Origin: Pontiellaceae bacterium
Lineage (GTDB): Bacteria > Verrucomicrobiota > Kiritimatiellia > Kiritimatiellales > Pontiellaceae
DNA length: 64,000 bases
NCBI GenBank assembly: GCA_016937945.1
Contig: JAFGVP010000102.1
Span: 20,227 to 84,226, forward strand
Reading direction: 5' to 3'
In this document: in pieces, positions 38,201 through 59,200 of the stretch
Layout of the letters: each line of letters starts with the position of its first letter
How positions within the stretch are numbered: the first letter of the stretch is position 1
Notes under the pieces: model-generated
What the model saw: the letters and a program-made list of their open reading frames with translations, nothing else
The model's database searches: none
What the model was told of the DNA's origin: nothing
Position numbers and translations under genes: made by a program

Positions 38201-38352
38201 CCCCGGAAGCGCCAACCGATGCAGATGCGTGAACCATGGTTTGGTGCACGGGTTCGGCGCCGGACCACTTCATGAACAACTGCTGGTGAAAAGAGTTTGC
38301 GGCGGACGTGGTTGAACCGATACGTTTTTGCAAAATAATCTTGGAGTTATCT

Positions 38353-41300
38353 ATGAATCGTTTTCTATCTGCCGGACTCATCCTCCTGACACTGCTTCTT
38401 CCTGTCCTGCCGTCGCAGGCTGCTGATTTTCTATCAGCGGAGGTGATTGCGAAAAAGGCAACTGCGGCCTCTGTTGATAAATATCCCGATTCCGATGCGG
38501 TCCTGCTTGATGACTACATTCAGGTGACCTACAACGCCGACGGAACCTCCGAAATGTGGGACGACACCGCCGTTAAGATCCTGACAGAAAAGGGCAAACG
38601 CAATTATCGCACGCTATCGCTCTCCTTCAACACTTCATACGGCACCAACTACTTTACACTGGTGGAAATCATTAAACCCGACGGATCGGTGATTCCCGTG
38701 GATATTACAGCCAACAGCAAGGTGATGGCGGATCCCAGCCAGATGAGCGCGAATATATACAACCCCAACAGCAAGGTGCTCAGTCTGTCGGTCCCCGGCC
38801 TGGAAGTGGGCGACACCCTGCACTACATCTCCTACGATCTCACAACAAAAACCGTCGTTCCGGATACATGGAGCGACTATCAGGTCTTTGAAGGAGAAAC
38901 TCCGATCGAGCAGATGACCTATCAGGTGGTTGCCCCGAGCGCGCGTCCGCTGCAGAAGATCGCGCTCAAGGGAGAGATTCCCGGCAAAGTTTCCTTCAAC
39001 CAGACCGTCAGCGAAGAAGACGGATATATTATCTACACGTGGCAGGTGCGGGATGTCCCGCGTATGTTCGACGAACCCGACATGCCGAAACGCTACACCG
39101 TTGTGCAGCGCCTGCTGGTCAGCACCATCGAATCATGGGAAGATCTCTCACGCTGGTACTGGGAACTGTGCAAACCGCGGCTTGATGCCACGACGCCGGA
39201 AATGGAAGCTAAAGCCCGCGAACTGGTAGCGGGATGCGAAACGAAGGCCGAAAAAATTCAAGCGGTTTTCCAGTTTGTTTCGCAGGATATCCGCTACATG
39301 GGTATCACCCCGGAAGAAGAGGCGCCCGGTTATGAGCCGCACGATGTATGCATCACCTTCGAAAACCGTTACGGGGTCTGCCGCGACAAAGCAGCCCTGC
39401 TGGCGGCCATGCTCCGGATTGTCGACATCGAGGCGTTCCCGGTCATCATCATGGCCGGCCCCAAGAAGGATGAAGAAGTTCCACAGCCCTTCTTCAACCA
39501 TGCGGTAACCGCCGCTCTTGGTGATGACGGTGAATACATCCTGATGGATTCCACCGACGAAAACACGAAGGACATTTTTCCGGCCTACCTCCAGAACATG
39601 AGCTATCTGGTTGCCCGCCCCGAAGGAGAGACCCTGCTCACCTCTCCGGTTATTCCGGCAGAAAACAATCTCCTGCGGATTCAATCCACCGGCACACTGA
39701 ATGCCACCGGCACATTGAACATGGAGAGCGTACTGAACTTTGAAGGCGTGAACGATACGGTTTATCGCGGCTACTTTTCAAAGATCAAGCCAGAGGAACG
39801 CCGGCGCTTCTTTGAGGGCCATCTGAAACGGACGATGCCCACCGCGATATTGAACTCGCTTGAAATCCTGCCCGAAGAGCTGCGCGACACCAGTAGCCCA
39901 CTGGTCGTAAAGATGACCTTTTCCGCAGACAACCTCCTGATTGAAGGCGAAGAAAACACCATGTTCCGACCACCGCGTCTCGGAATGTCGCTTGGCTACG
40001 CAAACTTTCTCATCGGACAGACCGGCCTCGAAGAGCGTAAATATCCGCTCTACACCCAGATCACCGCCGGTATTCGTGAAACCCAGAAGCTGAAGCTTCC
40101 CGACGATCTGGGCACCATCAATGTGCCGGATTTCATGCTGATCGACACCGAAACCATTACATGGAATGCCCATGCTTCTCAGCACGACGGCGCACTCTAC
40201 TCCACCAACATCTTCATGCTCAATACCGTGGAGTTCAGCCCGGAACAGTACAGCACCCTCAAGCAGCAATTGAAGGATATTGAATACAATCTGCGCAAGA
40301 GCATTGTGGCCGATGCCCCGCCGCAGTCGGAAGACGAAGCGGATATTCGGATTCTCGACCAAGAGACCGAGATTGTGCTTTCCGGCGTCGACCGATGGAC
40401 GGAAACCCGCCGGACCAAACTGAAGGTACTGACCTATGCCGGCCAGAAGGAATATTCCGAAATCAAGCTGTTCCATAATCCGGCGTGGCAGGAAATCGGA
40501 ATAACCCACGCAACCGTGACGCTCGCCGACGGAACCGTCAAAGAGATCAGCGACGATGAAATCAACCTGATGGACGCATCCTGGGTGGCCGGTGCGCCCC
40601 GCTATCCCTCCGGACGGATTCTGGTGGGCAACCTGCCCGGCGTGGAAATCGGAAGTACCATCGAGTATGAAGTGGTCTCCCGCGTTAATGGTAAACCCTT
40701 CTTTTCCATGATCGAAACCTTTACCGGCCATGAACCGGTGGATCACAGTAGGCTGACAATCACCGTTCCAGAGAACCTTCCGCTGCAGATTCTCAACACC
40801 GGTGTGGATGAAACCATCGAAAGCAGCGAAGATTCCATTACCTACACATGGAGTGTCTCGAATAAGCCAGCCGTCAAGTTTGAGGAATCCCTGCCGGACT
40901 GGTGGACGTTCAATCCATCGGTATTCGTTTCATGCGGCGACTGGGAAATCTACAGCAAGCAGCTTCTCGAACGTCTTCGGCAGGCCTCCCGCGAACAACC
41001 GGAAGCCATCCGCATGGCACGGAAAATAACAGGAGGAATCGGAAGCCATCGCGAGCGGGTGATTGCCATCCGCAACTGGGTAGCCGAAAACATTCGCCCG
41101 GCCGGTCCTTCCCTGCCCGACCTGCCCTTCGACGCCATTTCGCCGGCCGACCGCACGCTGGCCGACCGCTACGGCAACAACACAGATCGCATGGTCGTAC
41201 TCTACACCCTACTTAAGGCTGCCGGCTTCAAACCGGAATTCATTCTGTCCGGCGGCACGCCGCACATTGCGGAGGCTGCAAAACCGATGCTCGAAGTGCC

Positions 41301-42123
41301 GATCCGAACAGCATTCAGGTCCGTACTGCTCCGCATGGACCTCGATGGAGAAACCCTCTATATTGACGGCTCATCGCAGTATGCCGAGCTGGGAGCCAGC
41401 GCATTTGATCATGAACCCATGCTGCTTCTCGCCAACGGAACCATCGGCACCGTCCGGGTAGGACCTGGCAAGGATGACCGCTCTCACCTGCTGTACGAAA
41501 TGTCCATAACGCCGGACGGCGAGATGACGCTTTCTGAGGACATTGCGGTTCAGGGAGTGCGCTTTGAATCCTTCCATAGCACCTATGCGGAAATGACCCC
41601 GGAAAACCGCCGGCGCCACTATCTCGAAATCGTTTCCGGGGTTTCCCAGTCCGCCAAAGCCATGACAGAGCTGGTAACAGATTATGACAAATATCCGGGC
41701 AGGCTGGCCTTCACGGTTAAAGCACCTCGCTTTGCGGTGAAAGACGGCGACTATCTGTATTTCACCCTCCCGGAAGATTCTCTCAGTAACCTGCTTGTGT
41801 ACCGATCCAACGAACGAACCCTCCCGCTGGCATGGAATGCACATATCGACACATTGACTGAGTTTATCATTTACCTTCCAAAGGGATACGAGCCGGCGAT
41901 TCTTCCTGAAAACTTTTCATGGCAGGCGCCGCGTGGCGCCGGACTCATTGATATGGCCGTGGAATACAGTCCTGTCGATCACTCCATCCGTATGGTCCAG
42001 ATCGCCGATCTTCGGCCGGCACTGATCCCGGCGGATCAGTTTCCGGACATTATCAACGCCGGCCGCAAACTGGCCCATCCGAAAATGCGCACCATCCTGC
42101 TGAAAAAATCGGCCGCCAAATAA
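38353..42123 (+). CDS. secreted DUF3857/transglutaminase-like large protein (~1256 aa)
   Basis: Signal peptide 'LILLTLLLPVLPSQAAD'. Transglutaminase core 'YGVCRDKAALLAAMLRIVDIEAFPV'. A second DUF3857/3858-like half follows. Shine-Dalgarno GGAG precedes the ATG at 38353. Confidence 0.75.
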   Translation: MNRFLSAGLILLTLLLPVLPSQAADFLSAEVIAKKATAASVDKYPDSDAVLLDDYIQVTYNADGTSEMWDDTAVKILTEKGKRNYRTLSLSFNTSYGTNYFTLVEIIKPDGSVIPVDITANSKVMADPSQMSANIYNPNSKVLSLSVPGLEVGDTLHYISYDLTTKTVVPDTWSDYQVFEGETPIEQMTYQVVAPSARPLQKIALKGEIPGKVSFNQTVSEEDGYIIYTWQVRDVPRMFDEPDMPKRYTVVQRLLVSTIESWEDLSRWYWELCKPRLDATTPEMEAKARELVAGCETKAEKIQAVFQFVSQDIRYMGITPEEEAPGYEPHDVCITFENRYGVCRDKAALLAAMLRIVDIEAFPVIIMAGPKKDEEVPQPFFNHAVTAALGDDGEYILMDSTDENTKDIFPAYLQNMSYLVARPEGETLLTSPVIPAENNLLRIQSTGTLNATGTLNMESVLNFEGVNDTVYRGYFSKIKPEERRRFFEGHLKRTMPTAILNSLEILPEELRDTSSPLVVKMTFSADNLLIEGEENTMFRPPRLGMSLGYANFLIGQTGLEERKYPLYTQITAGIRETQKLKLPDDLGTINVPDFMLIDTETITWNAHASQHDGALYSTNIFMLNTVEFSPEQYSTLKQQLKDIEYNLRKSIVADAPPQSEDEADIRILDQETEIVLSGVDRWTETRRTKLKVLTYAGQKEYSEIKLFHNPAWQEIGITHATVTLADGTVKEISDDEINLMDASWVAGAPRYPSGRILVGNLPGVEIGSTIEYEVVSRVNGKPFFSMIETFTGHEPVDHSRLTITVPENLPLQILNTGVDETIESSEDSITYTWSVSNKPAVKFEESLPDWWTFNPSVFVSCGDWEIYSKQLLERLRQASREQPEAIRMARKITGGIGSHRERVIAIRNWVAENIRPAGPSLPDLPFDAISPADRTLADRYGNNTDRMVVLYTLLKAAGFKPEFILSGGTPHIAEAAKPMLEVPIRTAFRSVLLRMDLDGETLYIDGSSQYAELGASAFDHEPMLLLANGTIGTVRVGPGKDDRSHLLYEMSITPDGEMTLSEDIAVQGVRFESFHSTYAEMTPENRRRHYLEIVSGVSQSAKAMTELVTDYDKYPGRLAFTVKAPRFAVKDGDYLYFTLPEDSLSNLLVYRSNERTLPLAWNAHIDTLTEFIIYLPKGYEPAILPENFSWQAPRGAGLIDMAVEYSPVDHSIRMVQIADLRPALIPADQFPDIINAGRKLAHPKMRTILLKKSAAK

Positions 42124-45259: not shown

Positions 45260-46120
45260 TCAGAGCGACGAACCGCGCCAGTGCAGCTTCTGGGAGAGCA
45301 CAGAAAAATAGTTGTGGTTCTTCAGTTGCAGGAACCGGGCATCGTGCCGGCTGCGCCGGATTTCAAGGCATCCGCCCTTTTCAACCTGATATTCATCCTG
45401 CCCGTCGATGGACAGAATCAGTTCCTTGGCGGCATTGACGACCTCGATCTCGATCAGGCAGGCATCGGAAACCACCAGCGGACGTGATCCGAGCGTATGC
45501 GGACAGATGACATTGATCCCGAAACCGCAGATCCCCGGATGAAGGATCGGACCGCCGGAAGAGAGGGAGTGCCCGGTGCTACCGGTCGGCGTCGACACAA
45601 TCATCCCGTCACACATGAACAGACCAACGGGTTCGCCATCGATAGAGAGCTGAAAGGTAACTATGCGCGACGACGCGCCCCAGCCCAGTACGATATCATT
45701 CAGGGCCGACTCGGTGCCGACCACCGTTTCATGCTGAAAAATCCGGCATTCGGCGACCGAACGCCGGGATTCCTTGAATGAACCGGTGGCCAGCGCATTC
45801 AGGGCTTCGTGAATCTGCGTGTCGGCCACGCTGGTCAGGAATCCGAGACTTCCCAGATTAATGCCCATGATGGGAATATCTGCACCATGCAGCGCCCGGG
45901 AGGTGTAGAGTACGGTTCCATCGCCGCCCAGAGCCAGCGCGACCTCTACACAATTCCGGAATTCCGCGACCGGCAGGTATTCCGCGCGAAGGATGCGCGC
46001 CATGTCCCGATCTTCCGCATAGAGTTCAAATCCGTGCGATACCGCCTCTTTCCGCAACTGATCCAGCAGATGGGCGGCCCGGGGACGCTTCGCATTCACG
46101 ATGATGCCGATTTTCTTCAT
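45260..46120 (-). CDS. nadK: NAD+ kinase
   Basis: 'GGDGTVLYTSRAL' (GGDG motif) and 'GINLGSLGFL' (NE/D short motif). Start placed at 'MKKIGIIV'. Confidence 0.85.
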   Translation of the reverse strand: MKKIGIIVNAKRPRAAHLLDQLRKEAVSHGFELYAEDRDMARILRAEYLPVAEFRNCVEVALALGGDGTVLYTSRALHGADIPIMGINLGSLGFLTSVADTQIHEALNALATGSFKESRRSVAECRIFQHETVVGTESALNDIVLGWGASSRIVTFQLSIDGEPVGLFMCDGMIVSTPTGSTGHSLSSGGPILHPGICGFGINVICPHTLGSRPLVVSDACLIEIEVVNAAKELILSIDGQDEYQVEKGGCLEIRRSRHDARFLQLKNHNYFSVLSQKLHWRGSSL

Positions 46121-46255
46121 GGCTGGACTATAGGACGGGCTCCGGCGCATTCCAAGATCATGCACGGTCGTTTTTTACCCGTAAATCGCCGGAAGGAATC
46201 GGAAGAAATTATATCGGTCGTTGCCATATATCGACCGGATCATTAAAATGGCGAC

Positions 46256-46837
46256 ATGAATGATAAGCTATTACATGACCCGGAATCCTGGCTCGATGAA
46301 CATGGCGATTATCTGTTCCGGTATGCCTATGTCCGGCTTCGCAATCGGGCGGCGGCCGAGGATGCTGTTCAGGAAACCTTTCTGGCCGGCATCAAGGCCT
46401 ACGATCGATATGACGAAAAGACGCCGGTGCGCTACTGGCTCCGCGGGATTCTGCATCACAAGGTGGTGGACTATATCCGAAAGGCCGCCCGTGAAATCGC
46501 CGTGGATGACTCGGAAGATCATGAGATCCTCGACCGATTTAAATACAAAGCGTTCGGAATTCCTTCACAGCAGCCGGCGCCCTGGAAATTTGATCCCAAG
46601 CACGCCTATGAGCAGAAGGAATTCTGGGAAATTTTCTACCGATGCATGGCCGGTCTCAAGGAGAGCATGGGGCTGGCATTCACCATGAGGGAACTGGAAG
46701 GTCTCTCCACGGAAGAAATCTGTAAGGAACTCCGGATCAAGCCGAACAATCTGTGGGTGTTGCTCCATCGCGCACGGGCCCAGCTGAAAGAGTGTCTCGA
46801 AGCGCACTGGATCACCCCCGAAGGGACTGAACAATGA
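46256..46837 (+). CDS. ECF (sigma-70 family group 4) sigma factor
   Basis: Region 2 ('AEDAVQETFLAGIKAYDRYD') and region 4 HTH ('STEEICKELRIKPNNLWVLLHRARAQLK'). Confidence 0.85.
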   Translation: MNDKLLHDPESWLDEHGDYLFRYAYVRLRNRAAAEDAVQETFLAGIKAYDRYDEKTPVRYWLRGILHHKVVDYIRKAAREIAVDDSEDHEILDRFKYKAFGIPSQQPAPWKFDPKHAYEQKEFWEIFYRCMAGLKESMGLAFTMRELEGLSTEEICKELRIKPNNLWVLLHRARAQLKECLEAHWITPEGTEQ

Positions 46838-47094
46838 TCATGACGTGCAAACAGGTTGCCAAAGCTCTGGCAGAAAACAGGTATTATGAAATGCCGTGGA
46901 ATCGGCGTATCACCATGTTTATTCACATCAGGATATGTGCGGTTTGCGGAAGATATCACCAGCAGGTAATCGATATGCAAAAAGGGATACACGACTACCT
47001 TGAGCATGAAGATGCCGGAGACATTACCCCTACGCTGCAGCTGTCCGATGAAGCCCGACAGCGCATTGCCGAAAAACTGAAGAAAGAAAAATGA
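46834..47094 (+). CDS. zinc-binding anti-sigma factor (ZAS, zf-HC2)
   Basis: 86 aa. 'HIRICAVCGRYH' = H-x3-C-x2-C motif. Start overlaps the sigma factor stop. Confidence 0.75.
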   Translation: MIMTCKQVAKALAENRYYEMPWNRRITMFIHIRICAVCGRYHQQVIDMQKGIHDYLEHEDAGDITPTLQLSDEARQRIAEKLKKEK

Positions 47095-48035
47095 ACTCAA
47101 CAGCCGCCAGAACAGGAAATTTACATTCGAGCTTCAGCATGCCCCTGTTGTTCATGCATGCCTGTTGTGCCGGCGTCTTTTTTGTTGAGGGAGGATGGCC
47201 GGCCTGGGGCATCTTCGGTCTTATGTATGTCCTGCACGTTTTTGCGCTGACCGCCGGGTTTCATCGCTATTTTTCCCATAAGAGCTTCAAGACCAGCCGC
47301 GCATTCCAGTTTATTCTGGCGCTTGCAGGCACTACGGCTGCACAGCGAGATCCACTCTGGTGGGCCAGCCATCATCGCGTACACCACCAGAATGCCGACA
47401 CCGATGAAGATCCCCATTCCCCCCGGCAGCATGGATTCTGGTGGGCGCACATAGGCTGGGTCATGAAGCGGGAGCTCTCGGAAACCCGGTATGAACGCAT
47501 CAGGGATTTTTCAAGGTATCCGGAACTCGTCTGGCTGAACCGCCACCCCTACCTGCCGGTCGTCGGATTGGCCCTGATGCTGTTTGCAACGGGTATGCTG
47601 ATTGACATGATCCGACCGGCGTGGGGCATCACCGGTCCCCAGTTCCTATTTTACGGGTTCTTCCTCAGTACGATCGCTGTCTATCACGTCACCTTCTGCA
47701 TAAACTCCGTAGCCCACCTGATTGGGAAAAGGCCCTACGATATTGAGGATGACAGCCGCAACAACTGGCTGCTTGGACTGCTCGCGGGCGGAGAAGGATG
47801 GCACAACAATCATCACCGTTACGCGGTCTGCACGCGGCAAGGCTTTCGCTGGTGGGAGATTGATCTTACCTACCTGATGCTACGGTTGCTTCAGGTTTTC
47901 CGGATTGTCTGGGACATCCGCGAACCCCCGAGTGCGCTTTTGCAGGAGCGAATGGATGCACAAAAACTGCGTGGACTTCGCACGGCTCCCCTTCTGCACA
48001 AACAACATCATCCGGGATCGAATCCTTCGATCTGA
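47091..48035 (+). CDS. acyl-lipid/acyl-CoA fatty-acid desaturase (delta-9-type membrane desaturase)
   Basis: Three His boxes 'HRYFSH', 'HHRVHH', 'HNNHH' in a polytopic membrane protein. Confidence 0.85.
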   Translation: MNSTAARTGNLHSSFSMPLLFMHACCAGVFFVEGGWPAWGIFGLMYVLHVFALTAGFHRYFSHKSFKTSRAFQFILALAGTTAAQRDPLWWASHHRVHHQNADTDEDPHSPRQHGFWWAHIGWVMKRELSETRYERIRDFSRYPELVWLNRHPYLPVVGLALMLFATGMLIDMIRPAWGITGPQFLFYGFFLSTIAVYHVTFCINSVAHLIGKRPYDIEDDSRNNWLLGLLAGGEGWHNNHHRYAVCTRQGFRWWEIDLTYLMLRLLQVFRIVWDIREPPSALLQERMDAQKLRGLRTAPLLHKQHHPGSNPSI

Positions 48036-48064
48036 TCAACCCGCGTGGCAAAGGAGGTATTGAT

Positions 48065-49081
48065 ATGAGCCATCTCATGGAACTCGCAGAAAAGGGGTGC
48101 ATGCCCGACACGGCGATACGGGCCGGAATACGGAGGCTGTTGCGCGACCGCCTGCGTAGAGAGTGCGTAGAGACCGCTGAGCAGCAGCTGGAGAAACACT
48201 ACCGTTTCATTGAAAACATGAAAGCCGGGCCGGTGGCTGTTGCAACTGACACGGCCAATGAACAGCATTATGAGGTTCCCGCACGCTTCTTTGAGACCTT
48301 CATGGGTCCGCATATGAAATACAGCTGCGGATACTGGCCGGAAGAACAGACCACCCTGCAGCAGGCCGAAGAAGCCATGCTTGAGCTCACGGCACAGCGC
48401 GCCGGACTCAAGGATGACATGGAAATTCTGGAGCTGGGCTGCGGCTGGGGTTCCCTCTCCCTTTGGATGGCCCAACGCTTCCCGAAGGCCCGCATTACGG
48501 CGATCTCTAATTCGCAAACCCAGAAAAACTATATCGATGCAAGAGGACTTCCGAATCTGGAGATCATCACCGCCGACATGAATGACTTCAACACGAAAAA
48601 GCAGTTTGACCGCGTGGTGTCTGTTGAAATGTTTGAGCACATGCGCAACTGGCCGGAATTGTTGCGTCGGATCAGAGGCTGGCTGAAGGAAGATGGCAAA
48701 TTGTTTATCCATATCTTTGTGCACCGGGACATCAGCTACCTCTTCAATGATTCCGGCAAGGTAAACTGGATGGCGGATCACTTTTTCAAGGAGGGCATGA
48801 TGCCCTCCGAAAACCTGCCGTTCATGTTGAACGATGACCTGTTGGTGGAACGACATTGGCGGGTCAACGGTCGGCACTATGCCCGGACCCTGAGGGCATG
48901 GCTGGACAACATTGATCGGAACCATGCACCGGCCATCGCATGGCTGGACAACGGATCCACCAGCGAGGCGCTGATTCGATATGGACGATGGCGCATCTTC
49001 TTCATGGCATGCGAAGAACTTTTTGGATTCAGAGAGGGCGAAGAATGGTATGTGGCTCATTATCTTTTCAAAAAGCGCTAA
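48065..49081 (+). CDS. cyclopropane-fatty-acyl-phospholipid synthase-family SAM methyltransferase (paralog A)
   Basis: 'ILELGCGWGSLSLWMA' SAM motif, 'SVEMFEHM', and CFA-synthase-family C-terminal region. Confidence 0.8.
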   Translation: MSHLMELAEKGCMPDTAIRAGIRRLLRDRLRRECVETAEQQLEKHYRFIENMKAGPVAVATDTANEQHYEVPARFFETFMGPHMKYSCGYWPEEQTTLQQAEEAMLELTAQRAGLKDDMEILELGCGWGSLSLWMAQRFPKARITAISNSQTQKNYIDARGLPNLEIITADMNDFNTKKQFDRVVSVEMFEHMRNWPELLRRIRGWLKEDGKLFIHIFVHRDISYLFNDSGKVNWMADHFFKEGMMPSENLPFMLNDDLLVERHWRVNGRHYARTLRAWLDNIDRNHAPAIAWLDNGSTSEALIRYGRWRIFFMACEELFGFREGEEWYVAHYLFKKR

Positions 49082-49659
49082 CCCTAACCCTTATTGCAGG
49101 TGCCGGAATGTTTAACGGATGCTCAACCCGGCCGAGGAATATGGGACCCAGTCTCGAGGAGTACCGAAGGGAACTGAAGCGTGCCGAAGAAATCGCGGCG
49201 CCGGCCCCGGGCTGCGAAGTGGAAACCGAAGCCATACATCGGTTTGAAGCCTTCTATGCAGAGTATTCCGCCGAAGCGATTCGCAACGGAATCCGATCCG
49301 TCTATGCGAATGATGCCTGGTTCGGCGATCCCTATCACTCCGTGAAGGGAATAGCCGCTATTGAGAACTATTTTGTCGCCATGGCCGAACCGGTAGAGCA
49401 TTGCACTTTTACCGTTGATGCCATGCAGCGCGCCGGCAATGACTATTATGCCCGCTGGACGATGCATCTCGTATCAAAGGCCGCCGGAAAGGAGCCCATT
49501 ACGGCGATCGGAAACTCTCACCTGCGCTTTAACAAAGAGGGACAGATCATCTTCCAGCAGGATTACTGGGATACCAGTGTCCTGCTCGACCGGTTACCGG
49601 TGGTTGGATTCTGGACGCGGCTGGTAAAAGAAAAAATCATGAAAGGAATCAGTGAATGA
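49045..49659 (+). CDS. NTF2/SnoaL-like lipoprotein
   Basis: Lipoprotein-like signal 'ALTLTLIAGAGMFNGC' if started at 49045, which overlaps the upstream gene by 37 nt. The alternative ATG at 49108 would remove the signal peptide. The body 'DAWFGDPYHSVKGIAAIENYF...YYARWTM' is NTF2-like. Confidence 0.5.
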   Translation: MVCGSLSFQKALTLTLIAGAGMFNGCSTRPRNMGPSLEEYRRELKRAEEIAAPAPGCEVETEAIHRFEAFYAEYSAEAIRNGIRSVYANDAWFGDPYHSVKGIAAIENYFVAMAEPVEHCTFTVDAMQRAGNDYYARWTMHLVSKAAGKEPITAIGNSHLRFNKEGQIIFQQDYWDTSVLLDRLPVVGFWTRLVKEKIMKGISE

Positions 49660-50228
49660 AACGAACAGCAATTATGATGATTAGTTTATCCATGTTACTG
49701 AATGGTTGTATCGCCCAGAAACAGAAGGAGGTTCCAGTGACTGATTTTTACAGCATTGAAGCCAATACCATTACCGGACAATCGGTAAAGATGGGACAAT
49801 ATAAGGGAAATGTCTTGCTGATAGTAAACACCGCCAGCAAATGCGGTTTTACCGGACAGTATGCAGGCCTGCAGGAGCTGTATGAAAAATACAAAGATCA
49901 GGATTTCCTGATTCTGGGCTTTCCTTCCAACGACTTCCTCAAACAAGAGCCAGGCAGCAACGAGGAGATTGCAGCCTTCTGCACGAAGAACTATGGCGTG
50001 ACCTTCCCCATGTTTGAAAAAATTGTGGTTAAGGGAGATGGACAGCATCCCCTTTATGCCTACCTGACATCAACGCAGACCAACCCTGAATTTGAAGGGG
50101 AGATCAGTTGGAACTTTAACAAGTTTCTCATTTCGAAGGACGGGAAAATCGTGAATCGGTTTGATAGCCGGACCAAGCCGGATGACAAGGGACTGGTACA
50201 GGCACTGAAGGCTGAGCTCGTAAAATGA
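49656..50228 (+). CDS. glutathione peroxidase
   Basis: 'NTASKCGFTGQY' (active Cys), 'ILGFPSNDF', 'WNFNKFLI' GPx motifs. N-terminal signal/lipobox 'LLNGC'. Confidence 0.85.
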   Translation: MKRTAIMMISLSMLLNGCIAQKQKEVPVTDFYSIEANTITGQSVKMGQYKGNVLLIVNTASKCGFTGQYAGLQELYEKYKDQDFLILGFPSNDFLKQEPGSNEEIAAFCTKNYGVTFPMFEKIVVKGDGQHPLYAYLTSTQTNPEFEGEISWNFNKFLISKDGKIVNRFDSRTKPDDKGLVQALKAELVK

Positions 50229-50755
50229 AACAGATGATACATCTCTTTGCATGCTTCGCGATTATGCTGATTGCAGCCAGCTGTCGTTCTACGTCGGACC
50301 TGAAAGTGATATCAGGGTTTGAAGTGGATCGCTACCTGGGGACGTGGTACGAGGCGGCCCGCTTCCCGCACCGCTTTGAAAAGGACCTGGTGGCAGTCAC
50401 TGCAGACTACAGCCGCAATCCGGATGGAACCATCCGGGTGATCAACCGGGGGTATCATCCGGGAAAGAACAAATGGGAAACGGCGGAAGGAGAGGCACGC
50501 TTCAGGGATGATCCAACCGTCGGCTGGCTCGAGGTCAGTTTTTTCAAGCCGTTCTATGGAGCATATAAGATTCTCTATCTGGATAAAGAGTACACCGAAG
50601 CAATTGTAGCCGGGCCCACCTATGGATACTTCTGGATTCTCACGCGCGAACCGGAATTGCCGAAGGAGCGGCTTGGACAGTTGGTTCGCAAAGCGGCGGA
50701 CTTTGGGTTTGATACCAACCGCATTGAATTTGTTGCTCAGGAAATGAACCGGTGA
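50225..50755 (+). CDS. blc: bacterial lipocalin (Blc-like outer-membrane lipoprotein)
   Basis: Lipobox 'LIAASC'. Lipocalin SCR1 'YLGTWYEAAR'. Confidence 0.8.
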   Translation: MKQMIHLFACFAIMLIAASCRSTSDLKVISGFEVDRYLGTWYEAARFPHRFEKDLVAVTADYSRNPDGTIRVINRGYHPGKNKWETAEGEARFRDDPTVGWLEVSFFKPFYGAYKILYLDKEYTEAIVAGPTYGYFWILTREPELPKERLGQLVRKAADFGFDTNRIEFVAQEMNR

Positions 50756-52005
50756 GCAAACCGCAGCATATAGCTGTTATAGGGTCCGGCGCGGCCGGAT
50801 TGACTGCAACGCATCTTCTTCAGCGCCATCATCAGGTAACGCTGATTGAGAAGAACGATCGGATTGGCGGACATACCAACACGATCATTATTCCTGACGG
50901 ACCTGATGCCGGCACCCCGGTCGACACCGGCTTCATTGTGATGAACCACCGCAACTATCCCCTGCTCACCCACCTATTTGAACAGCTCGGCGTTGCACTG
51001 CACGACAGCAACATGTCGTTCGGCTATCATGACCTCCCGTCCGGCATGCAGTATTGCGGCGACGGGCTGAATGGATTGTTTGCCCAGAGAACCAATCTAC
51101 TGCGCCCCAGATTTATTCATATGATTCGCGATGTACTGCGCTTTTTCAAACTGGCGGAATCGGATCTCGAAGGGATGAACCTGACAGATGAAACACTGGG
51201 TGATTACCTGAAGCGAAACCGTTTTGGCCAAGCTTTTATCGACCATCATCTCATTCCCATGGGATCGGCCATCTGGTCGACCCCCTGTGAACAGATGATG
51301 GAATTTCCCGCGCGTAGCTTCCTCCAGTTTTTTCACAACCATGGACTGCTGACCCTGAACGACCGTCCGCAGTGGAAAACCGTCGTGGGAGGAAGCTGCG
51401 ACTATGTCCGGCGCATGAAGTCCGAGTGGAACAACGTCGATGTTCGCACCGGGATAAGCATCCAGCAAATTATCCGCAGTAAGGATGGTGTGCATATTGA
51501 GCTGAAAGGGGCCGGGCAGGAAACCTTTGATCAAGTCATCATCGCCACGCATGCCGACCAGGCGCTGCTGTTGCTGGGAGATCCGACGGAACGGGAGCAG
51601 GCTGCTCTGGGTTGTTGGCAATACACGCCGAGCCGCACCTACCTGCATACCGATGAGTCGGTCATGCCACCCCTGCGCAGGATCTGGAGTTCATGGAACT
51701 TCAAACGGATCGAGGGAAGCAAGACCTGCCTGACCTATCACATGAACCGCCTGCAGGGACTGCAGACTCAAAAGCAGTATTTTGTGTCACTGAACCTACC
51801 CAAACCGCCCAGAGACATCGTAAAAGAGATTGATTATGAACATCCGATGTACACCCGCGATGCCCTGGCGTCCCAAGCCCTGCTACGCCAACTCAACGGT
51901 GATAACCATACCTGGTTTGCCGGGAGTTATTTTGGAAACGGCTTTCATGAAGATGCGGTGCGCTCTGCGGTGGAGGTGGCCGAGGCATTTGGAATCAATC
52001 TATGA
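50752..52005 (+). CDS. NAD(P)/FAD-dependent oxidoreductase (amine-oxidase-like)
   Basis: 'IAVIGSGAAGLTA' Rossmann GxGxxG. Amine-oxidase family architecture. Lies in a CFA-synthase cluster. Confidence 0.75.
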   Translation: MSKPQHIAVIGSGAAGLTATHLLQRHHQVTLIEKNDRIGGHTNTIIIPDGPDAGTPVDTGFIVMNHRNYPLLTHLFEQLGVALHDSNMSFGYHDLPSGMQYCGDGLNGLFAQRTNLLRPRFIHMIRDVLRFFKLAESDLEGMNLTDETLGDYLKRNRFGQAFIDHHLIPMGSAIWSTPCEQMMEFPARSFLQFFHNHGLLTLNDRPQWKTVVGGSCDYVRRMKSEWNNVDVRTGISIQQIIRSKDGVHIELKGAGQETFDQVIIATHADQALLLLGDPTEREQAALGCWQYTPSRTYLHTDESVMPPLRRIWSSWNFKRIEGSKTCLTYHMNRLQGLQTQKQYFVSLNLPKPPRDIVKEIDYEHPMYTRDALASQALLRQLNGDNHTWFAGSYFGNGFHEDAVRSAVEVAEAFGINL

Positions 52006-52751
52006 ACAGCCTGATCTACAGCGGCAAGGTCATGCATGCCCGGCAAAGTCCATTTTATCATCGATGGGTATTTCCTTATGTTTTTTATGCCATCGATCTG
52101 GATGAACTGCCGGAGCTGGACCGCCGCGTGACAGGATTCGGATTCAACCGCTGGAACCCGGTGTCGCTGCGTGAAAAGGATTACCTGCACGGCAGCGGTC
52201 CCTTTCGCGAGCAGTTATCGGAGTTTGTGAATCTGAATGAAATCGACCGCATCATACTGATTACATCGGCCCGCTGGATCAAACGGATTTTCAATCCGGT
52301 GAGCTTTTACTATTGCCTGAAGGCGGATGGGAGTCCTGGCTGCATGGTGGCAGAGGTCAACAACACCTTTGGTGAGCGACACCTGTATGTGCTCTCCTCC
52401 GGTGATGCATTCCCGGTCCGCTGCAGCCATGACAAGCAGTTTCACGTATCCCCTTTTAACACCATGCAGGGAACGTATGACTTTACCTTTTCCGAGCCGG
52501 GGAAGGAACTTGAGATACGAATCCGGCTGACTCAGGACAACACGGTTATCATGGATGCCGCCCTGTGGGGTTCCGGCAGGCCGTTGACCACAAAAAACCT
52601 CTGGCAAACCATGTTGCGGCATCCGTTCACCGCATGGATGACCATGCCGCGCATCCTCGGGCAGGCGGCCCTGCTGTATTACCGTAAAAAACTGCCGCTT
52701 CACCGTAAGCCGGCACCATCCAGCCCCATGACCATCAAGGAGTGTGCATGA
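52002..52751 (+). CDS. DUF1365-family protein
   Basis: 'IYSGKVMHARQSPFYHRWVFPYVFYAIDLDEL' N-terminus typical of DUF1365. Always accompanies FAD oxidoreductase plus CFA synthase. Confidence 0.7.
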   Translation: MNSLIYSGKVMHARQSPFYHRWVFPYVFYAIDLDELPELDRRVTGFGFNRWNPVSLREKDYLHGSGPFREQLSEFVNLNEIDRIILITSARWIKRIFNPVSFYYCLKADGSPGCMVAEVNNTFGERHLYVLSSGDAFPVRCSHDKQFHVSPFNTMQGTYDFTFSEPGKELEIRIRLTQDNTVIMDAALWGSGRPLTTKNLWQTMLRHPFTAWMTMPRILGQAALLYYRKKLPLHRKPAPSSPMTIKECA

Positions 52752-53956
52752 TGTCTGACGCCATTCACAAAATCTGTTTTGACCTGGTTGACCGGCAACT
52801 TCAAAACATTGAAAAGGGACACCTGCAGCTGGATCTGTCTGATGGCACGCAGCGGCACTATGGCGATGACTCCGAGCCGAAAATCATCAGTGTTCATCAT
52901 GAACGGTTCTTCTCACGATTGGCCATGGGCGGCAACATCGGGATAGGAGAGAGCTGGAGTGATGGCGACTGGGACAGCCCCCACCTGACCGATGTCCTCA
53001 TGCTCTTTATTAACAATATGCAACAGTTGAAGGCCAGCGGACTGACCGCCGGACTGATCAAGCGCGTTCAACATCTGCTGCAGCATGCGCGCAATCGAAA
53101 CACGCAGGAAGGAAGCCGGCGCAATATCCATGCGCATTATGACCTGGGAAATGATTTTTACCGACTGTTCCTCGACCCCGAAACCATGATGTATTCCAGT
53201 GCCTTGTTTGACAATCCGGGTGATTCCCTGGCAGAGGCCCAGCGCAACAAGATTGCCCGACTGATCGAACTGGCGGACATCAGGCCGGAGCACCATGTCC
53301 TGGAGATCGGGTGCGGCTGGGGTGGATTTGCCATTGAAACAGCCCGCCGGACCGGTTGCCGCGTGACCGGAATCACCATCTCCGAAGAGCAGTTTGCTTT
53401 TGCCAGAGAGCGTGTCATTCAGGAAGGACTGCAAGACCGGGTACGAATCGAGTTTTGTGATTACCGGAAGATGGACGGATCCTTTGACCGAATTGTTTCC
53501 ATTGAAATGCTCGAAGCCGTCGGACATGCCTATTATGGAACTTTTTTTGAAACGTGCGACAAACTCCTCCGCCCCGGCGGTCGGATGGCGTTGCAGGTGA
53601 TTACCATTCCCGATCAGCGCTACGACAGCTATCGGCGCAACCCGGACTGGATCCAGAAGCACATCTTTCCCGGCGGCATGCTGCCGTCGTTGACCGAGTT
53701 GTCCAAAGCCATGACCCGCCACTCCCGACTTACCGTCGAACATCTTGATAACATCGGCATACACTATGCAGAAACCCTGCGGCGCTGGAGGGATGCATTT
53801 TCTGCAGAGACCGAAAGACTGGAACTGCTGGGGTATGATGAAAACTTCCGGCGAAAGTGGGTCTATTATCTCTGCTACTGTGAAGCCGGATTCCAGACCC
53901 GTTTCACCAACAACCTGCATCTTGTACTGACGAGGCCGGCGGAAATACCGAGCTAA
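52742..53956 (+). CDS. cfa: cyclopropane-fatty-acyl-phospholipid synthase (paralog B)
   Basis: 'VLEIGCGWGGFAIETA' SAM motif, 'SIEMLEAVGH', and C-terminal 'LCYCEAGF' CFA synthase hallmarks. Confidence 0.85.
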   Translation: MCMMSDAIHKICFDLVDRQLQNIEKGHLQLDLSDGTQRHYGDDSEPKIISVHHERFFSRLAMGGNIGIGESWSDGDWDSPHLTDVLMLFINNMQQLKASGLTAGLIKRVQHLLQHARNRNTQEGSRRNIHAHYDLGNDFYRLFLDPETMMYSSALFDNPGDSLAEAQRNKIARLIELADIRPEHHVLEIGCGWGGFAIETARRTGCRVTGITISEEQFAFARERVIQEGLQDRVRIEFCDYRKMDGSFDRIVSIEMLEAVGHAYYGTFFETCDKLLRPGGRMALQVITIPDQRYDSYRRNPDWIQKHIFPGGMLPSLTELSKAMTRHSRLTVEHLDNIGIHYAETLRRWRDAFSAETERLELLGYDENFRRKWVYYLCYCEAGFQTRFTNNLHLVLTRPAEIPS

Positions 53957-55266
53957 TTTGTTGCTGCGGCGGCTTTCAGAGCCGCAAGAAAGGCGGCATA
54001 GGGACTGGAGATGGAGGTGCCGGCATAGGTCTGGCCGTTAAAATTGGCAATCGCCGGCTCCCATATCTGAACAAAGTCGCCATAGTTTGAGTTTTCCCAG
54101 ACGCTGCCGTCTGGATTCAGGCCGCCTACGGCAATCACAGATTCGTATCCGGCGGGATAGATCAGCGTTCCGGTCGGTTCATTTCCGGCGGAGGCATACA
54201 ACGTCACTCCGAGCGATGCGGCATAGTTCATCGCCGTTTCCAGAAAACTACTGTCGATGTCCGATCCCCAGCTCATGCTGACGATTGAAACGTCGGAGTT
54301 GGAAGCATAATCCAACGCCCGGTAAATGATATCCGAGCTCGTCATTCCGTTTTCATCAAATGCCATGATCGAAAGAACCGGCACCCCGGAGGTAGCCGCA
54401 TCGGCGCCTTCCGGAGTGAGCGCACCGGACGCAATCAGCGAAGTGAGTGTCCCGTGGCCGGACGGATCATAGATGGAATCGGAGGGATCGACGGCATTAT
54501 AGGTGCCTCGGATAAACGGCAGGTCGGCATACTGTGGATCCAGTCCGGAATCGAGCACCGCCACCGCGGTCTCGCCCGACTGAAGATGCAGGTTGATTCC
54601 GTCGATGGTTCCGGTCAGCGGGATACTGGCGCTGTCGATACGGGAAAATGCTCGGTTCGGTTCGGCTCCGTCCACCTTATCCTGCGCCAGCGCGATGGCG
54701 ATCGCCTCTTCCACAGTCAGTCCTTCGCCGATCCGGATACGGTAGACACCCGGCGGATTAATCACCTCAATCACGGTTCCGCTAAGCTTGGCCAGCAGAG
54801 CGTTAAGATCTTTTTCCGTGGCACCCTCGGCGAATCCGACCATGATCTCTCCGCGGATATATTTAATGCCTCCGGCGCCTTCCACCACATCCAGCACCTT
54901 GCGGTCTTTCGAGAGCCGTTCGACGGACGAACGGGAGCCGTCCGAAAAAATGCGAATCGTGTCCAGCTGATCAAAATCGCCCAGCGGTCCCTTAATCCGT
55001 TTCCATTCGAGCAGATAGGTATTCGGTCCGGCGAGCTGGGCAATCACCCGTTCCATACGTGCATTTTCCCAGCTCCCGGTAACCCGGTCGAGTTCCAGCG
55101 ACGGATCGATCAGCACCTCGACCCCGCACTCTTCAAACAGGCGAAGGACTTTGACCAGTGAGGCTCCGCCTCCATCCAGCCACACACGATCGCCCTCCAT
55201 GCGGAGCGAGGCCGACCACGCAGCCAGCGGAAGCAGAAACAGGAGGATGACAGCTTTTAATCTCAT
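53953..55266 (-). CDS. secreted subtilisin-like serine peptidase (S8 family)
   Basis: Catalytic triad motifs 'VAVLDSGLD', 'SGHGTLTS', 'GTSISSPYAA'. Signal peptide from 'MRLKAVILLF'. Confidence 0.85.
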   Translation of the reverse strand: MRLKAVILLFLLPLAAWSASLRMEGDRVWLDGGGASLVKVLRLFEECGVEVLIDPSLELDRVTGSWENARMERVIAQLAGPNTYLLEWKRIKGPLGDFDQLDTIRIFSDGSRSSVERLSKDRKVLDVVEGAGGIKYIRGEIMVGFAEGATEKDLNALLAKLSGTVIEVINPPGVYRIRIGEGLTVEEAIAIALAQDKVDGAEPNRAFSRIDSASIPLTGTIDGINLHLQSGETAVAVLDSGLDPQYADLPFIRGTYNAVDPSDSIYDPSGHGTLTSLIASGALTPEGADAATSGVPVLSIMAFDENGMTSSDIIYRALDYASNSDVSIVSMSWGSDIDSSFLETAMNYAASLGVTLYASAGNEPTGTLIYPAGYESVIAVGGLNPDGSVWENSNYGDFVQIWEPAIANFNGQTYAGTSISSPYAAFLAALKAAAATN

Positions 55267-55372
55267 GGAGGGAACATAACGTCCACACCTCAAAAAACAA
55301 TGCATTCCGAATGCGATGCAATCGCCTTCGCGGTCTTGTCATGCACCGTCTTTCTGAAGTAAGGTCCGGCGC

Positions 55373-56287: not shown

Positions 56288-59200
56288 TTACCGCTTGAGC
56301 GGAAGGAAGAGCAGGTCGAGTTTTTTCCGGTCGGTTTCAGGATCTTTCTCATAGCGGAACAGCCGCCAGAGCACGGACATTTTGTAATAGCCGTCCTTGT
56401 ATGAATCGATCGTGATACCGGGGAAAATATCGGTGCTCATATCGCCGTTCAGCTTTTCGTAATGGTAGAGTCGCCAGAGGATGCGCCGGCGGAAATAGTC
56501 GTGCTCCTCATCCTTTGTCCCCTCTTCATGACGGGTGTCATACAGGATTCCGAGGAGCGAAGAGGTTTCCAGCCGATTGTCCGCCGGGGCATAGTCGCGG
56601 ACTTCATGATTCCATAGCGGGAAAAATCCCTGATCCTTGGTATACACGCTGCGCTCCAGCCGGTTTCCATCATCATCGAGTTCATAACGCCAATGTTCAT
56701 CCGACTGACCGAAAGAGAGCAGATAATGAAATCGACGGGACTCTTCGGAATATTTTTTTGAATCATCGGACCGTGACATCCATTCATATTCCGTGCGGGT
56801 CGAATCATAAATCCCCATGAACCCGTGACTTTTCCGGTTTTCCGAACGATTGTAATACCCCAGCGGGAAATAGTACCCCCTGACCGCATCGCTGGAGATA
56901 TCTTTACGGTGCCAGTAAAGCGGAAAGACCCAGCTGCCCGCTTTACCGCTGCCGGCTTCATAACGTCCGACCAGCGGCGTGGCAAAATAGCTCTTTTTCC
57001 GGTTGGTTCCATAGATCGCCGAATAAAAATATTCATCCTTCGCCCACGCATAGAAAGGCAGTACATGCGAACCCTCCACGCCGGATGCGCCGGTCCGCCA
57101 ATGGCCGATTCCGCCCAGCAGCAGGAGATCCGTGAATTCCGGCGACTCGCTCCAGCCGCTCAGTAGCAGCGGAAGCGCATGCTGCTGTCGATCGCTGGAG
57201 GTCCATGTGGAATACGGCAGGGAGAAAAAGGTGTTATTCTCCGGCGCCGCATAATAGAGCGGCAACGCATAGTGGTACGAATACGCGCCGCCTTTTCGAT
57301 AACCGGCCAGCCCCAGCGCAATGGTTGCACCGGAGCTGTCGGAATCATTGTACCAACGGCTCAGCAATGGAAGAATCATGCGATTCTTTCGATCGCCGTT
57401 GCTCCAGCTGGAATACGGAATCGAGAAGAAATTGTCCTGCTCCGGCGCCGTATAATAGAGCGGAAGCACATAGTGATATGGTTCGTCTCCGCCTGCACGG
57501 AATCCGGCAAGACCGGCAGCCAGCACTGCCCGCGTAGAATTCGTGCCGGACTGCCAGCCGCTCAGCAACGGCGGAATCACATGATTCGTCCGATCTCCGT
57601 TGGGCCACGCGCTGTATGGCAGGGATATAAAGGTATCGTTGGCCGGTGATGCATAGTAGAGCGGTGCAACATAGGAGTACGGATCCGATCCGCCAGCCCG
57701 GAAGCCGGCAAGTCCGGCGGCGATCACAGCGCGTGCCGATTCGTCATTGCGCTGCCAGCCGCTCAGCAGCGGCGGAACCATGTGGTTCTGGTTTGAACCG
57801 TGCTGCCACGTTGCGTATGGCACAGAGACGAAGCGGCCGTCTTCCGGCGCCCGGTAATAAAGTGGAAAAACATAGCTCGAGCTGCGTTCCGGATTCCAGT
57901 GCCGGGCTGCCAGACCGGCCAGATACATATTCCGGCCGGATTCTTCATTTTTCGAGCCGCCGCTCAGCAGCGGCAGTGCGATCCAGCTCTGCTCTTCACC
58001 AAGGCGCCACCGACCGCCCAGCAACGTCATAAAATGCGCGTCATATTCATCGTTCACATAGACAAAAGGAATATAACAGCGCCATGCAGGAGTCCCGTCT
58101 TCATGGAGTTTGCGTGCATAGAACGGAGTAATCATGACCGAACCGTCGGGCGACTCAGCGCCATAGTAAAACGGAAAAGAGGCCTGCCACGCCGTTCCAT
58201 CGGCATGATGTTCAGACATCCAAACCGGCGAATAGAATGCCGACGAATTGGTGCTGTATCCGTGATAATAGAACGGAATCGTGGTGTTCCAGCCGGAGCC
58301 GTCGGCCTTTTTCTGCGACATCCATGGCAAGGAGTAGAATGAGGAGACCTCATCGGAATATCCGCGGTAATACAAAGGGAACGATCCGTGCCAGACGGAG
58401 CCGTCGGACCGTGTTTTTGAAAGCCACGGAAGCGAATAAAACGCCGATTCATCCTCGCTGTAGCTTCTGTAATAGAGCGGCGCCAAAGCATGCCAGCCGG
58501 AGCCGTCCGCCCGCTTTTTCATCCACCACGGCAGGGAATAAAAAGCTGCTTTGTTTTCTCCATACCCATAGTAATAGAGAGGGAACATGGCATTGAATCC
58601 GGAACCGTCCGCCCGGGTCTTCCACCACCACGGCAGCGTGTAGAGCGCGCGCTCATCGGCATCATTCCCATAATAATAGAGAGGAAACAGGTGGTGCCGC
58701 AGTTCATTGTCAGAACGGGAAACCCCGCCCAACCCCAGCAGGTATCGAAGCTGTGATCCATAAGGATCGCGACTGCCCCAGGACAACGCAGGGAACGCGG
58801 CCCAGCCGAAGCGCTCACCCTCCCAGCTTCGATAGCAGAGCGGCAGCGCCATATCCCAGCTTTTCTCGCCGGAAACGGTACTGCGACTGAAGCTGTATGG
58901 AAGCGAGAGAAAGGTGTTGCGATCGTCGGCGTTCGCGTGGGCATACAACGGAAGTGCCCAGCTGCCCTTTGACTCCGGATCTTCGTAGGAATGGATCAGC
59001 GGCCACGCAATATACTGGCTGTATCCGGTTTCCGTATCCTTCCTGCTGTAAATCGGCCAGCAGCGCCAAGCGCTCCATGTATCATAATCGTGATGCGCAA
59101 AAAACGGCCACATCAGGTGCAGCGAATTTCCGTACGACCGGTTGATCCAGATCCAGAAAGGAAACAGCGAGTCGTATCCCGTCCCGCTGACCGGATGGCC

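Follow-up and report, generated by a model that had tools for sequence, protein, structure and literature searches.

As seen in Table 1, ten genes on the forward strand of a contig from an anaerobic marine member of the Pontiellaceae (Kiritimatiellota) place a set of lipid-modification enzymes behind a regulator pair, an extracytoplasmic function (ECF) sigma factor and a small zinc anti-sigma factor (ZAS). The analyzed DNA, called the window here, is a stretch of 64,000 nt, and the operon coordinates are given in its numbering. According to the list of open reading frames (ORFs) of the window, all ten ORFs at 46256-53956 are co-oriented. Seven of the nine junctions between them are 4-nt overlaps of stop and start codons (ATGA or GTGA type) or slightly longer overlaps, and at the two remaining junctions the genes overlap by 37 nt in one case and lie 29 nt apart in the other. 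The ten genes form a single operon that is translationally coupled along most of its length. A first-pass annotation, made from the sequence alone, had described ten co-oriented, mostly overlapping genes with the domains listed here; all of the ORFs were recovered, and the Pfam and NCBIfam assignments agree with it. The SnoaL gene most likely starts near 49045 and not at 48940. For gene 10, the gene caller picks the ATG at 52748 as the start.

Table 1. Features of the sigma/ZAS operon, in window numbering.
Feature	Position	Strand	Basis
Conserved promoter: TTGCCA (46221-46226), 17-nt spacer, TAAAAT (46244-46249)	46221-46249	+	Aligned in 14 loci
ECF (group IV) sigma factor, 193 aa	46256-46837	+	Pfam Sigma70_r2 and Sigma70_r4_2
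ZAS anti-sigma factor, 86 aa	46834-47094	+	NCBIfam NF052368; C5/H31/C35/C38
SCD-type acyl desaturase	47091-48035	+	Pfam FA_desaturase
Gene 4: coclaurine N-methyltransferase (CNMT)/LIME/FufM-like S-adenosylmethionine methyltransferase, 338 aa	48065-49081	+	Pfam CMAS
Gene 5: NTF2/SnoaL-like lipoprotein, 204 aa	~49045-49659	+	Pfam SnoaL_2
Gene 6: Cys-type glutathione peroxidase (BtuE-like) lipoprotein	49656-50228	+	Pfam GSHPx
Gene 7: Blc-like lipocalin lipoprotein	50225-50755	+	Pfam Lipocalin_2, NCBIfam Blc
Gene 8: UfaD-type FAD amine-oxidase-like desaturase	50752-52005	+	Pfam Amino_oxidase
Gene 9: UfaO-type DUF1365 protein	52002-52751	+	Pfam DUF1365
Gene 10: CMAS-family methyltransferase in the UfaM position, 404 aa	52742-53956	+	Pfam CMAS

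The operon is not confined to one genome. An exact copy of the region was found on two Logan contigs, and 15 GTDB loci were retrieved with an alignment of the anti-sigma protein, their gene order being mapped by tblastn. These loci are mostly named Pontiella or Pontiellaceae, the others Kiritimatiellales or Verrucomicrobia, and the cultured P. sulfatireligans F21 (L009) is among them. The gene order is kept, at 50-84% protein identity, in every locus long enough to judge (about 14 Pontiellaceae genomes and metagenome contigs), a recurrence far above chance expectation. The core that exists in every complete locus consists of the sigma factor, the ZAS, the desaturase, the 338-aa CMAS protein (CMAS338, gene 4), the FAD enzyme, the DUF1365 protein, and the 404-aa CMAS protein (CMAS404, gene 10). 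In 15/15 loci the ZAS gene ends and the desaturase gene begins in a shared ATGA, and the peptide encoded from this ATG is conserved too; therefore, the desaturase start lies at 47091, and its translation is coupled to that of the regulator pair. Other parts vary. The SnoaL, glutathione peroxidase, and Blc genes are all missing from locus L015, so the three lipoprotein genes are dispensable. An extra DUF1295 gene lies between the desaturase and CMAS338 genes in most relatives (e.g. L005 11121-11927); it is missing in L003 and in the window, where only the gap at 48036-48064 is found. Additionally, a chalcone-isomerase-like gene precedes the FAD enzyme gene in some relatives (e.g. L005 14646-15206; the equivalent place in the window is 50755).

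The chemistry of the cargo is best read from its last three genes. For comparison, two control loci were used, on a plasmid of Azospirillum thermophilum and on plasmid p1 of Shinella sp. H4-D48, in both of which annotated ChrR anti-sigma genes adjoin DUF1365 clusters. Gene 8 (Amino_oxidase, E 1.4e-26) is 46% identical over 406 aa to the FAD oxidoreductase of the Azospirillum cluster and 44% identical to that of Shinella. Gene 9, which overlaps it by 4 nt, matches DUF1365 over its full length (240.6 bits) and shares 34% (Azospirillum) and 33% (Shinella) identity with its DUF1365 counterparts. Gene 10 (CMAS, 280 bits; E. coli Cfa match, 183 bits) is 42-50% identical to the CMAS gene product encoded after DUF1365 in Azospirillum. 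The window cluster holds the content of the core ChrR regulon, namely an RSP1091-type FAD oxidoreductase, an RSP1090-type DUF1365 protein, and a protein resembling a cyclopropane fatty acid (CFA) synthase. UfaD is RSP1091 and UfaO, which carries DUF1365, is RSP1090 (PMC7380195). In R. palustris and Halomonas, the genes ufaD, ufaO, and ufaM follow one another directly, and the CMAS gene clustered there has UfaM activity (PMC7380195, PMC12089945). UfaM is the CMAS-family methylase that makes 11Me-12t-18:1, and the biochemistry and O2 requirement of UfaM, UfaD, UfaO, and FufM have been described (PMC7380195). The order in the window, amine oxidase, DUF1365, ~400-aa CMAS, is the ufaD-ufaO-ufaM order. 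It can be seen that the two likenesses proposed in the first-pass annotation, to the RpoE-ChrR core regulon and to the furan fatty acid (FuFA) set, are both borne out, and that the core regulon and the FuFA gene set are one and the same. Judged by these identities, the window cargo is orthologous to the proteobacterial sigmaE-ChrR/FuFA cluster.

The first enzyme of the operon supplies what that cluster is not headed by. The desaturase (FA_desaturase, E 5.4e-21) aligns with mouse and human SCD1 (4ymk) at 133 bits and E 8e-38, with the His boxes HRYFSH, HHRVHH, and HNNHH all in register, and is thus an O2-dependent membrane di-iron enzyme. Cultured Pontiella are obligately anaerobic, fermenting, non-phototrophic bacteria from sediment, and for three species, all obligate anaerobes, only saturated and iso fatty acids were reported, from anoxic cultures only (PMC7356697, PMC10880615). 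Because CMAS enzymes need an alkene and the lipids of Pontiella are reported to be saturated, a desaturase within the operon would be the logical entry step.

Gene 4 differs from gene 10, although both match Pfam CMAS and had been listed together as two CFA-synthase-family methyltransferases. Its best PDB match is a plant coclaurine N-methyltransferase (234 bits, where E. coli Cfa reaches 99 bits), and LIME1 presumably belongs to this coclaurine-N-methyltransferase branch as well. FufM and Arabidopsis LIME1 reportedly share 38% identity (PMC10940516). Gene 4 is not a canonical CFA synthase; it falls in the CNMT/LIME/FufM-like branch and is proposed to be a furan-ring methylase. With the CMAS protein of the Shinella p1 operon, the same protein shares 47% identity over 333 aa; in the RefSeq annotation, this operon reads sigma, ChrR, DUF1295, CMAS, hypothetical protein. 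As in most Pontiellaceae loci, a sigma/anti-sigma pair there heads lipid genes in which DUF1295 is followed by CMAS338; the DUF1295 proteins of the relatives are 37% identical to that of Shinella, and in both cases the promoter abuts the sigma start codon. Unlike the Pontiellaceae pair, that of Shinella combines a cupin-bearing ChrR of 217 aa with a sigma of the ECF11 type; moreover, the UfaD-type gene of Shinella is divergent, the DUF1365 gene is separate, and no desaturase, glutathione peroxidase, or Blc gene is found there. From these comparisons, the Pontiellaceae appear to share the Shinella layout with a non-homologous regulator pair.

The products of genes 5, 6, and 7 each have a lipoprotein signal peptide, and this peptide is conserved among their orthologues. 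Gene 5 (SnoaL_2, E 1.5e-11; conserved lipobox ...TGC|TSKSK) is 23% identical (E 1.5e-7) to an NTF2-family protein of the ChrR-linked Azospirillum cluster. Gene 6, with a conserved lipobox as well, matches GSHPx at E 2e-40 and NCBIfam PRK10606 at 188.5 bits, and is proposed to be a periplasmic lipid-hydroperoxide reductase. Gene 7 matches Lipocalin_2 at E 1.9e-41 and Blc at 176.7 bits, with the lipobox L(L/A)SGC conserved. The earlier statement that the cargo is augmented with a glutathione peroxidase and a lipocalin is borne out by these domains. A comparable combination is known from Shewanella oneidensis, where an ECF-controlled CMAS lipid cluster (the cfa-containing operon SO_3386-3374) and the exported glutathione peroxidase PgpD, a periplasmic enzyme, depend on RpoE2-ChrR (PMC4336711). 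In Shewanella, the genes lie at separate loci behind ChrR-type TGATCC-N16-CGTAAT promoters, whereas in the window they sit together in a single operon under another regulator.

The regulator pair is of a different family from that of the ChrR-linked clusters. The sigma factor carries Sigma70_r2 (E 4.9e-15) and Sigma70_r4_2 (E 1.5e-11), reaches 154.7 bits against NCBIfam TIGR02943 (cut-off 162.2), and is 49-60% identical to the partner sigma factors of short ZAS proteins from five distant lineages. In the 86-aa ZAS, the predicted zinc ligands form the arrangement C5-x25-H31-x3-C35-x2-C38, and there is no membrane segment; the four residues are invariant in 22 close homologues, all of 84-86 aa. 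A ZAS motif has been defined as H-x3-C-x2-C plus a fourth Cys or His ligand 23-26 residues upstream (PMC7907618, PMC2893595), and the window protein shows this motif including the fourth ligand. It has no Pfam match, zf-HC2 included. An AlphaFold2 model of it consists of four helices (pLDDT 78.8).

For a broader view, a ZAS profile was searched against 1.84 billion representative proteins, clustered at 50% identity. At E <= 1e-3, 404 clusters were obtained, almost all of 80-110 aa, and H-x3-C-x2-C is present in 145 of the 150 clusters listed. When 104 distant relatives were aligned, the four ligand positions alone were invariant. All 104 match NF052368 at E <= 1e-3 (best 8.3e-21), while Pfam zf-HC2 is matched by 43 and the RsrA model TIGR03988 by 19. 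These findings suggest that the window ZAS lies at the divergent edge of a large family of ~85-aa C-H-C-C ZAS proteins. In all six distant genomic contexts that lay on contigs long enough to read, as well as in all Pontiellaceae loci, the ZAS gene is directly downstream of an ECF sigma gene (~190 aa in the distant contexts); in the window, it overlaps the sigma stop codon by 4 nt. The early call of an anti-sigma factor holds, given the ligands invariant in the 104 relatives, their common match to NF052368, and the adjacent sigma genes. The remark that a short ZAS without cupin domain is notable does not: shortness is typical of this large family, and the protein has the register of MseR and is not a truncated ChrR. 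At one locus only (L030 10595-11170), a gene for the redox-activated chaperone Hsp33 follows a stand-alone sigma/short-ZAS pair, a hint of oxidative-stress sensing.

The closest described regulators are MseR, acting on sigmaE of N. meningitidis, HrsE, acting on RpoE2 of H. influenzae, and RsrA, acting on sigmaR of Streptomyces, all stand-alone proteins of ~67-105 aa without membrane segment (PMC2893595, PMC7907618). HrsE, with 67 aa, is a small stand-alone or "peptide" anti-sigma factor (PMC7907618). In Neisseria MseR the ligands are C4/H30/C34/C37, of which Cys4, Cys34, and Cys37 are needed for anti-sigma activity (PMC2893595). The window register C-x25-H-x3-C-x2-C is that of MseR and RsrA (PMC2893595), the likeness being one of register. 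The assignment of the 86-aa protein as an MseR/RsrA-type ZAS is sound, and binding of zinc and of the sigma factor is predicted. The regulons of these three, unlike the window operon, serve protein repair or thiol systems (msrAB, thioredoxin) and not lipid modification.

A cargo orthologous to the core ChrR regulon, together with ZAS motif positions 31/35/38 that are exactly those of ChrR (PMC6852236), might suggest a true singlet-oxygen response of the sigmaE-ChrR type as in Rhodobacter, with a truncated ChrR. Such a response is very improbable here. By BLASTP, the ZAS had no match to the ChrR proteins of the control loci, and the window sigma matched the ChrR-partner sigma of Azospirillum only at E 0.13-0.19, which is not significant, and that of Shinella only in a partial weak match (E 7.6e-4 over 66 aa). 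A PDB search with the sigma returned no sigmaE-ChrR entry among the hits at E <= 10. The 86-aa ZAS has no cupin-like C-terminal domain, which the singlet-oxygen response requires (PMC6852236), and its first zinc ligand is Cys and not His. The ECF11 target promoter is TGATCC-N16-CGTA(AT) (PMC4336711). As a regular expression, TGATCC-N16-CGTA occurs 0 times in or before the Pontiellaceae clusters, and the same scan finds three copies per control locus, upstream of the sigma and lipid genes. Also, no photolyase gene is present in the cluster, and the hosts are non-phototrophic obligate anaerobes of dark sediments (PMC7356697). As far as such comparisons reach, the sigma is not of the ECF11 type, nor is the Pontiellaceae regulator pair as a whole of the ECF11/ChrR type. 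In the control loci (L031 4365 (-), L032 6832 (+)), the ECF11 promoter ends ~8-10 nt before the ATG at or near the sigma start; this spacing suggests leaderless or near-leaderless sigma mRNAs, in parallel to the Pontiellaceae.

A promoter-motif search had been advised by the first-pass annotation, and it yielded one conserved site, at 46221-46249, and neither a ChrR-type promoter nor copies within the cluster. When the sequences before the sigma gene of 14 Pontiellaceae loci are aligned, they agree only in TTGCCA(T) and TAAA(A/C)T, 16-17 nt apart, and the second element (TAAAAT in the window) ends 6 nt from the sigma ATG, a distance constant in 14/14. There is one copy of the motif per locus and no other in 322 kb. 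In several relatives, the terminator hairpin of the upstream gene abuts this stretch. With a hairpin directly upstream and the motif only 6 nt from the ATG, the motif must be the promoter, which implies that a sigma mRNA starting from it would be leaderless. The sigma gene has no Shine-Dalgarno-like sequence; most other window genes have one. Two further candidates were tried and rejected. A GGAAT...CGTT pair upstream of 46221, seen by eye as an ECF promoter of the GGAAC...CGT kind, has a 19-nt spacer, is not conserved, and is replaced by the hairpin in relatives. The other, an internal promoter ahead of the desaturase gene, would have no space, since this gene and the ZAS gene share an ATGA in all loci. 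Within the TTGCCA/TAAACT spacer of L011, L015, L016, L017, and L019, an inverted repeat was observed, ATTTCC-N7-GGAAAT or ATTCC-N8-GGAAT (e.g. L016 3668-3686). It could represent a repressor operator and is missing in the window.

Taken together, the locus is read here, with a confidence slightly above even, as a sigma/ZAS-controlled operon for furan fatty acid synthesis on saturated membrane lipids. The ECF sigma would be held inactive by the small cytoplasmic C-H-C-C zinc anti-sigma of the MseR/RsrA type. Oxygen intrusion, peroxide, or thiol oxidants may oxidize the zinc-binding cysteines and release the sigma, and the freed sigma would act at the leaderless promoter to increase transcription of the operon that encodes it. 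In the first step, the SCD-type desaturase would use O2 to put a cis double bond into a saturated phospholipid chain. The ~400-aa CMAS in the UfaM position would then methylate this double bond, the UfaD-type FAD enzyme would introduce a second one, and the UfaO-type DUF1365 enzyme would close the furan ring, again with O2. In the fifth step, the FufM-like methyltransferase would add the second methyl group, so that both mono- and dimethyl furan fatty acids might be formed; which lipid is made and with what regiochemistry are predictions here, as are the inducing signal and the sigma dependence of the promoter. On the periplasmic side, the glutathione peroxidase, the Blc lipocalin, and the NTF2-like lipoprotein may handle oxidized lipids. 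Of the oxidative or photo-oxidative response proposed in the first-pass annotation, the photo-oxidative half is unlikely because the hosts live in sediments as fermenting obligate anaerobes (PMC7356697, PMC10880615), and a response to oxygen or to thiol oxidation appears more plausible.

Several points concerning the regulator, its promoter, and the lipids weigh against this reading. The ZAS itself aligns with the full 48-position NCBIfam model NF052368 ("antisigmaE") at E 1.3e-8 with 34.5 bits, where the curated cut-off is 50. In a Foldseek comparison of its model with the PDB, the anti-sigma factors RskA (4nqw_B) and RslA (3hug_J) rank 2 and 5, neither of them significantly (E 3.9 and 6.6, TM 0.40-0.49), and the ZAS alignment profile searched against PDB sequences gave chance matches only and no anti-sigma domain. 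In Neisseria, the MseR-controlled sigmaE was unresponsive to the oxidants tested (PMC2893595).

The main weakness of a sigma-controlled operon lies in the promoter, whose sequence alone would be compatible with either an ECF or a housekeeping sigma factor. TTGCCA-N17-TAAAAT, the sole conserved promoter, has 10/12 matches to the sigma-70 consensus, is the best such site in 45900-54300, and lacks AAC/CGT-type ECF elements, so a housekeeping sigma could transcribe the operon. The operon may accordingly be constitutive, with O2 as a substrate gating the pathway and the ECF sigma regulating genes elsewhere; this has a real but distinctly smaller chance of being correct. It would agree with the result of a position weight matrix scan of ~560 kb of related sequence, in which no further TTGCCA/TAAAAT copy marked regulon members, and with sigma-70-like sites preceding the sigma gene in other lineages (e.g. 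TTGCAA-N16-TAGATT, L025). The distant sigma/ZAS pairs stand alone without lipid genes, the linkage to this cargo being specific to one family, and the related RpoE2 of H. influenzae barely autoregulates (PMC7907618). Constitutive transcription fits less well with the translational coupling of sigma, ZAS, and desaturase in 15/15 loci. Moreover, in Proteobacteria sigmaE-ChrR has independently come to head the homologous DUF1295-CMAS operon, where a proven ECF11 promoter motif lies right next to the sigma start codon, and sigmaE-MseR of Neisseria is autoregulated (PMC2893595). Also, the fourth base of the -35 element is again C (TTGCC) before genes of this sigma family in three lineages whose neighboring genes are unrelated; in the two distant ones, the sigma gene is preceded by TTGCC(A/C)-N17-TA.

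As to the lipids, the published reports on Pontiella, all on anoxic cultures, mention neither furan fatty acids nor methyl-branched or unsaturated ones (PMC7356697, PMC10880615). The Ufa and Fuf types were assigned only indirectly, through genes of the ChrR-linked clusters and published accounts of the characterized enzymes. In R. sphaeroides, the CMAS gene RSP1089, which has the same position as gene 10, is dispensable for FuFA synthesis (PMC7380195). The best NCBIfam matches of gene 10 are cyclopropane fatty acid synthase models, all below cut-off. It retains E239, I268, and Y317 of E. coli Cfa, and at the bicarbonate-ligand positions it carries C139->S and H266->Q, substitutions that 8-9 of 9 orthologues share. 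Plant cyclopropane synthases (CPS), among them those of cotton, have the same S/Q substitutions, unlike canonical bacterial Cfa, and make cyclopropanes (PMC3132707). The signature, tried as a means to tell Cfa from UfaM, was given up as not discriminating: it sets gene 10 apart from canonical bacterial Cfa and does not predict the product.

Together with the barely characterized biochemistry of DUF1365, these points leave some room for a product other than furan lipids. Cyclopropane, cyclopropene, or mid-chain methyl-branched fatty acids could be made in a general membrane-rigidifying stress response, with the UfaD and UfaO homologues doing other chemistry, although we regard this as rather improbable. 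All four FuFA enzyme types co-occur in the operon, and the UfaD/UfaO pair is kept in every complete locus. The only characterized relative of the FufM-like methylase methylates the furan ring and not 18:1 (PMC7380195), and where a CMAS gene is clustered with ufaD-ufaO, in R. palustris and Halomonas, it is UfaM (PMC7380195, PMC12089945).

Furan fatty acids are scavengers of radicals and of singlet oxygen. To our knowledge, the bacterial pathway was worked out between 2014 and 2020 and only in two alpha-proteobacteria, in which the genes are controlled at a distance by sigmaE-ChrR; our literature search found no paper linking furan fatty acids with the phyla of the present hosts. The operon described here is a variant of this known proteobacterial system, with the FuFA/ChrR cargo behind an MseR-type sigma/ZAS pair and with a desaturase of its own. 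Compared to the FuFA pathway of R. sphaeroides (Cereibacter) and R. palustris, it has enzymes of the same families, namely a ~400-aa CMAS, an FAD desaturase, a DUF1365 oxygenase, and a FufM/CNMT-like methylase (PMC7380195, PMC6852236). The D-O-M gene order and the link to an ECF sigma/ZAS pair are shared too, and NTF2-like and DUF1295 accessories are common to both. Its regulators differ in having no cupin domain, no ECF11 similarity, and no TGATCC-N16-CGTA promoter. Its cargo is headed by the SCD-type desaturase, includes the glutathione peroxidase and Blc lipoproteins, and lacks the SDR, DUF3833, and photolyase genes; its host is an obligately anaerobic member of the Kiritimatiellota with saturated lipids.

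A more far-reaching scenario can be put forward only tentatively. Anaerobic Pontiellaceae, whose lipids are saturated under anoxia, may switch on the operon upon contact with oxygen through an MseR-type zinc switch that replaced ChrR, and may then make furan fatty acids de novo, starting from saturated acyl chains, with O2 used in two steps. If this is true, a FuFA system with a defined regulator would for the first time be known from outside Proteobacteria and eukaryotes, and no earlier one would have had its own desaturase; its positional isomers would probably be unlike 9M5/9D5. The FuFA response would also have been wired independently to two different sensors of reactive oxygen species. 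A probably complete pathway, the alkene-making step included, lies here behind a simpler redox-type anti-sigma in a phylum that has cultured strains, and the compact gene set lends itself to heterologous testing. With cargo and position alike and the sigma/anti-sigma pair non-homologous, the locus would represent a natural experiment in regulator replacement. It also offers a concrete hypothesis of how strict anaerobes with saturated membranes may cope with transient oxygen, and a candidate regulon for one branch of the large, mostly uncharacterized family of ~85-aa ZAS proteins.

Both flanks of the operon lie on the opposite strand, with a NAD kinase gene (45260-46165) upstream and a gene for an S8/fervidolysin-like secreted peptidase (53953-55305, -) downstream. 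The latter converges on the last operon gene, the 3' ends overlapping by 4 nt. The S8 peptidase is syntenic, at 49-75% identity, in most Pontiellaceae loci that reach past the operon end, and was not found in L009.

Several other features of the window were recorded. At 30980-42123 (+), a 1708-aa DUF3686/DUF7902/AAA ATPase is encoded between a 680-aa ORF with no Pfam match and a 1271-aa protein with transglutaminase and DUF3857 domains; none of the three proteins had a PADLOC match. At 56288-59578 (-), a 1096-aa protein of no Pfam family has a lipoprotein-like N-terminus (LLAGC) and many degenerate "FPLYY...SLPW...DGS" repeats. At 2261-6216 (-), SspC (1015 aa, PADLOC 1153 bits) and SspB (303 aa, DUF4007, 320 bits) of an Ssp single-strand DNA phosphorothioation defense system are encoded in a low-GC stretch (0.47 vs ~0.55) near tRNA-Pro(ggg) at 7006-7083, which is probably a defense island.

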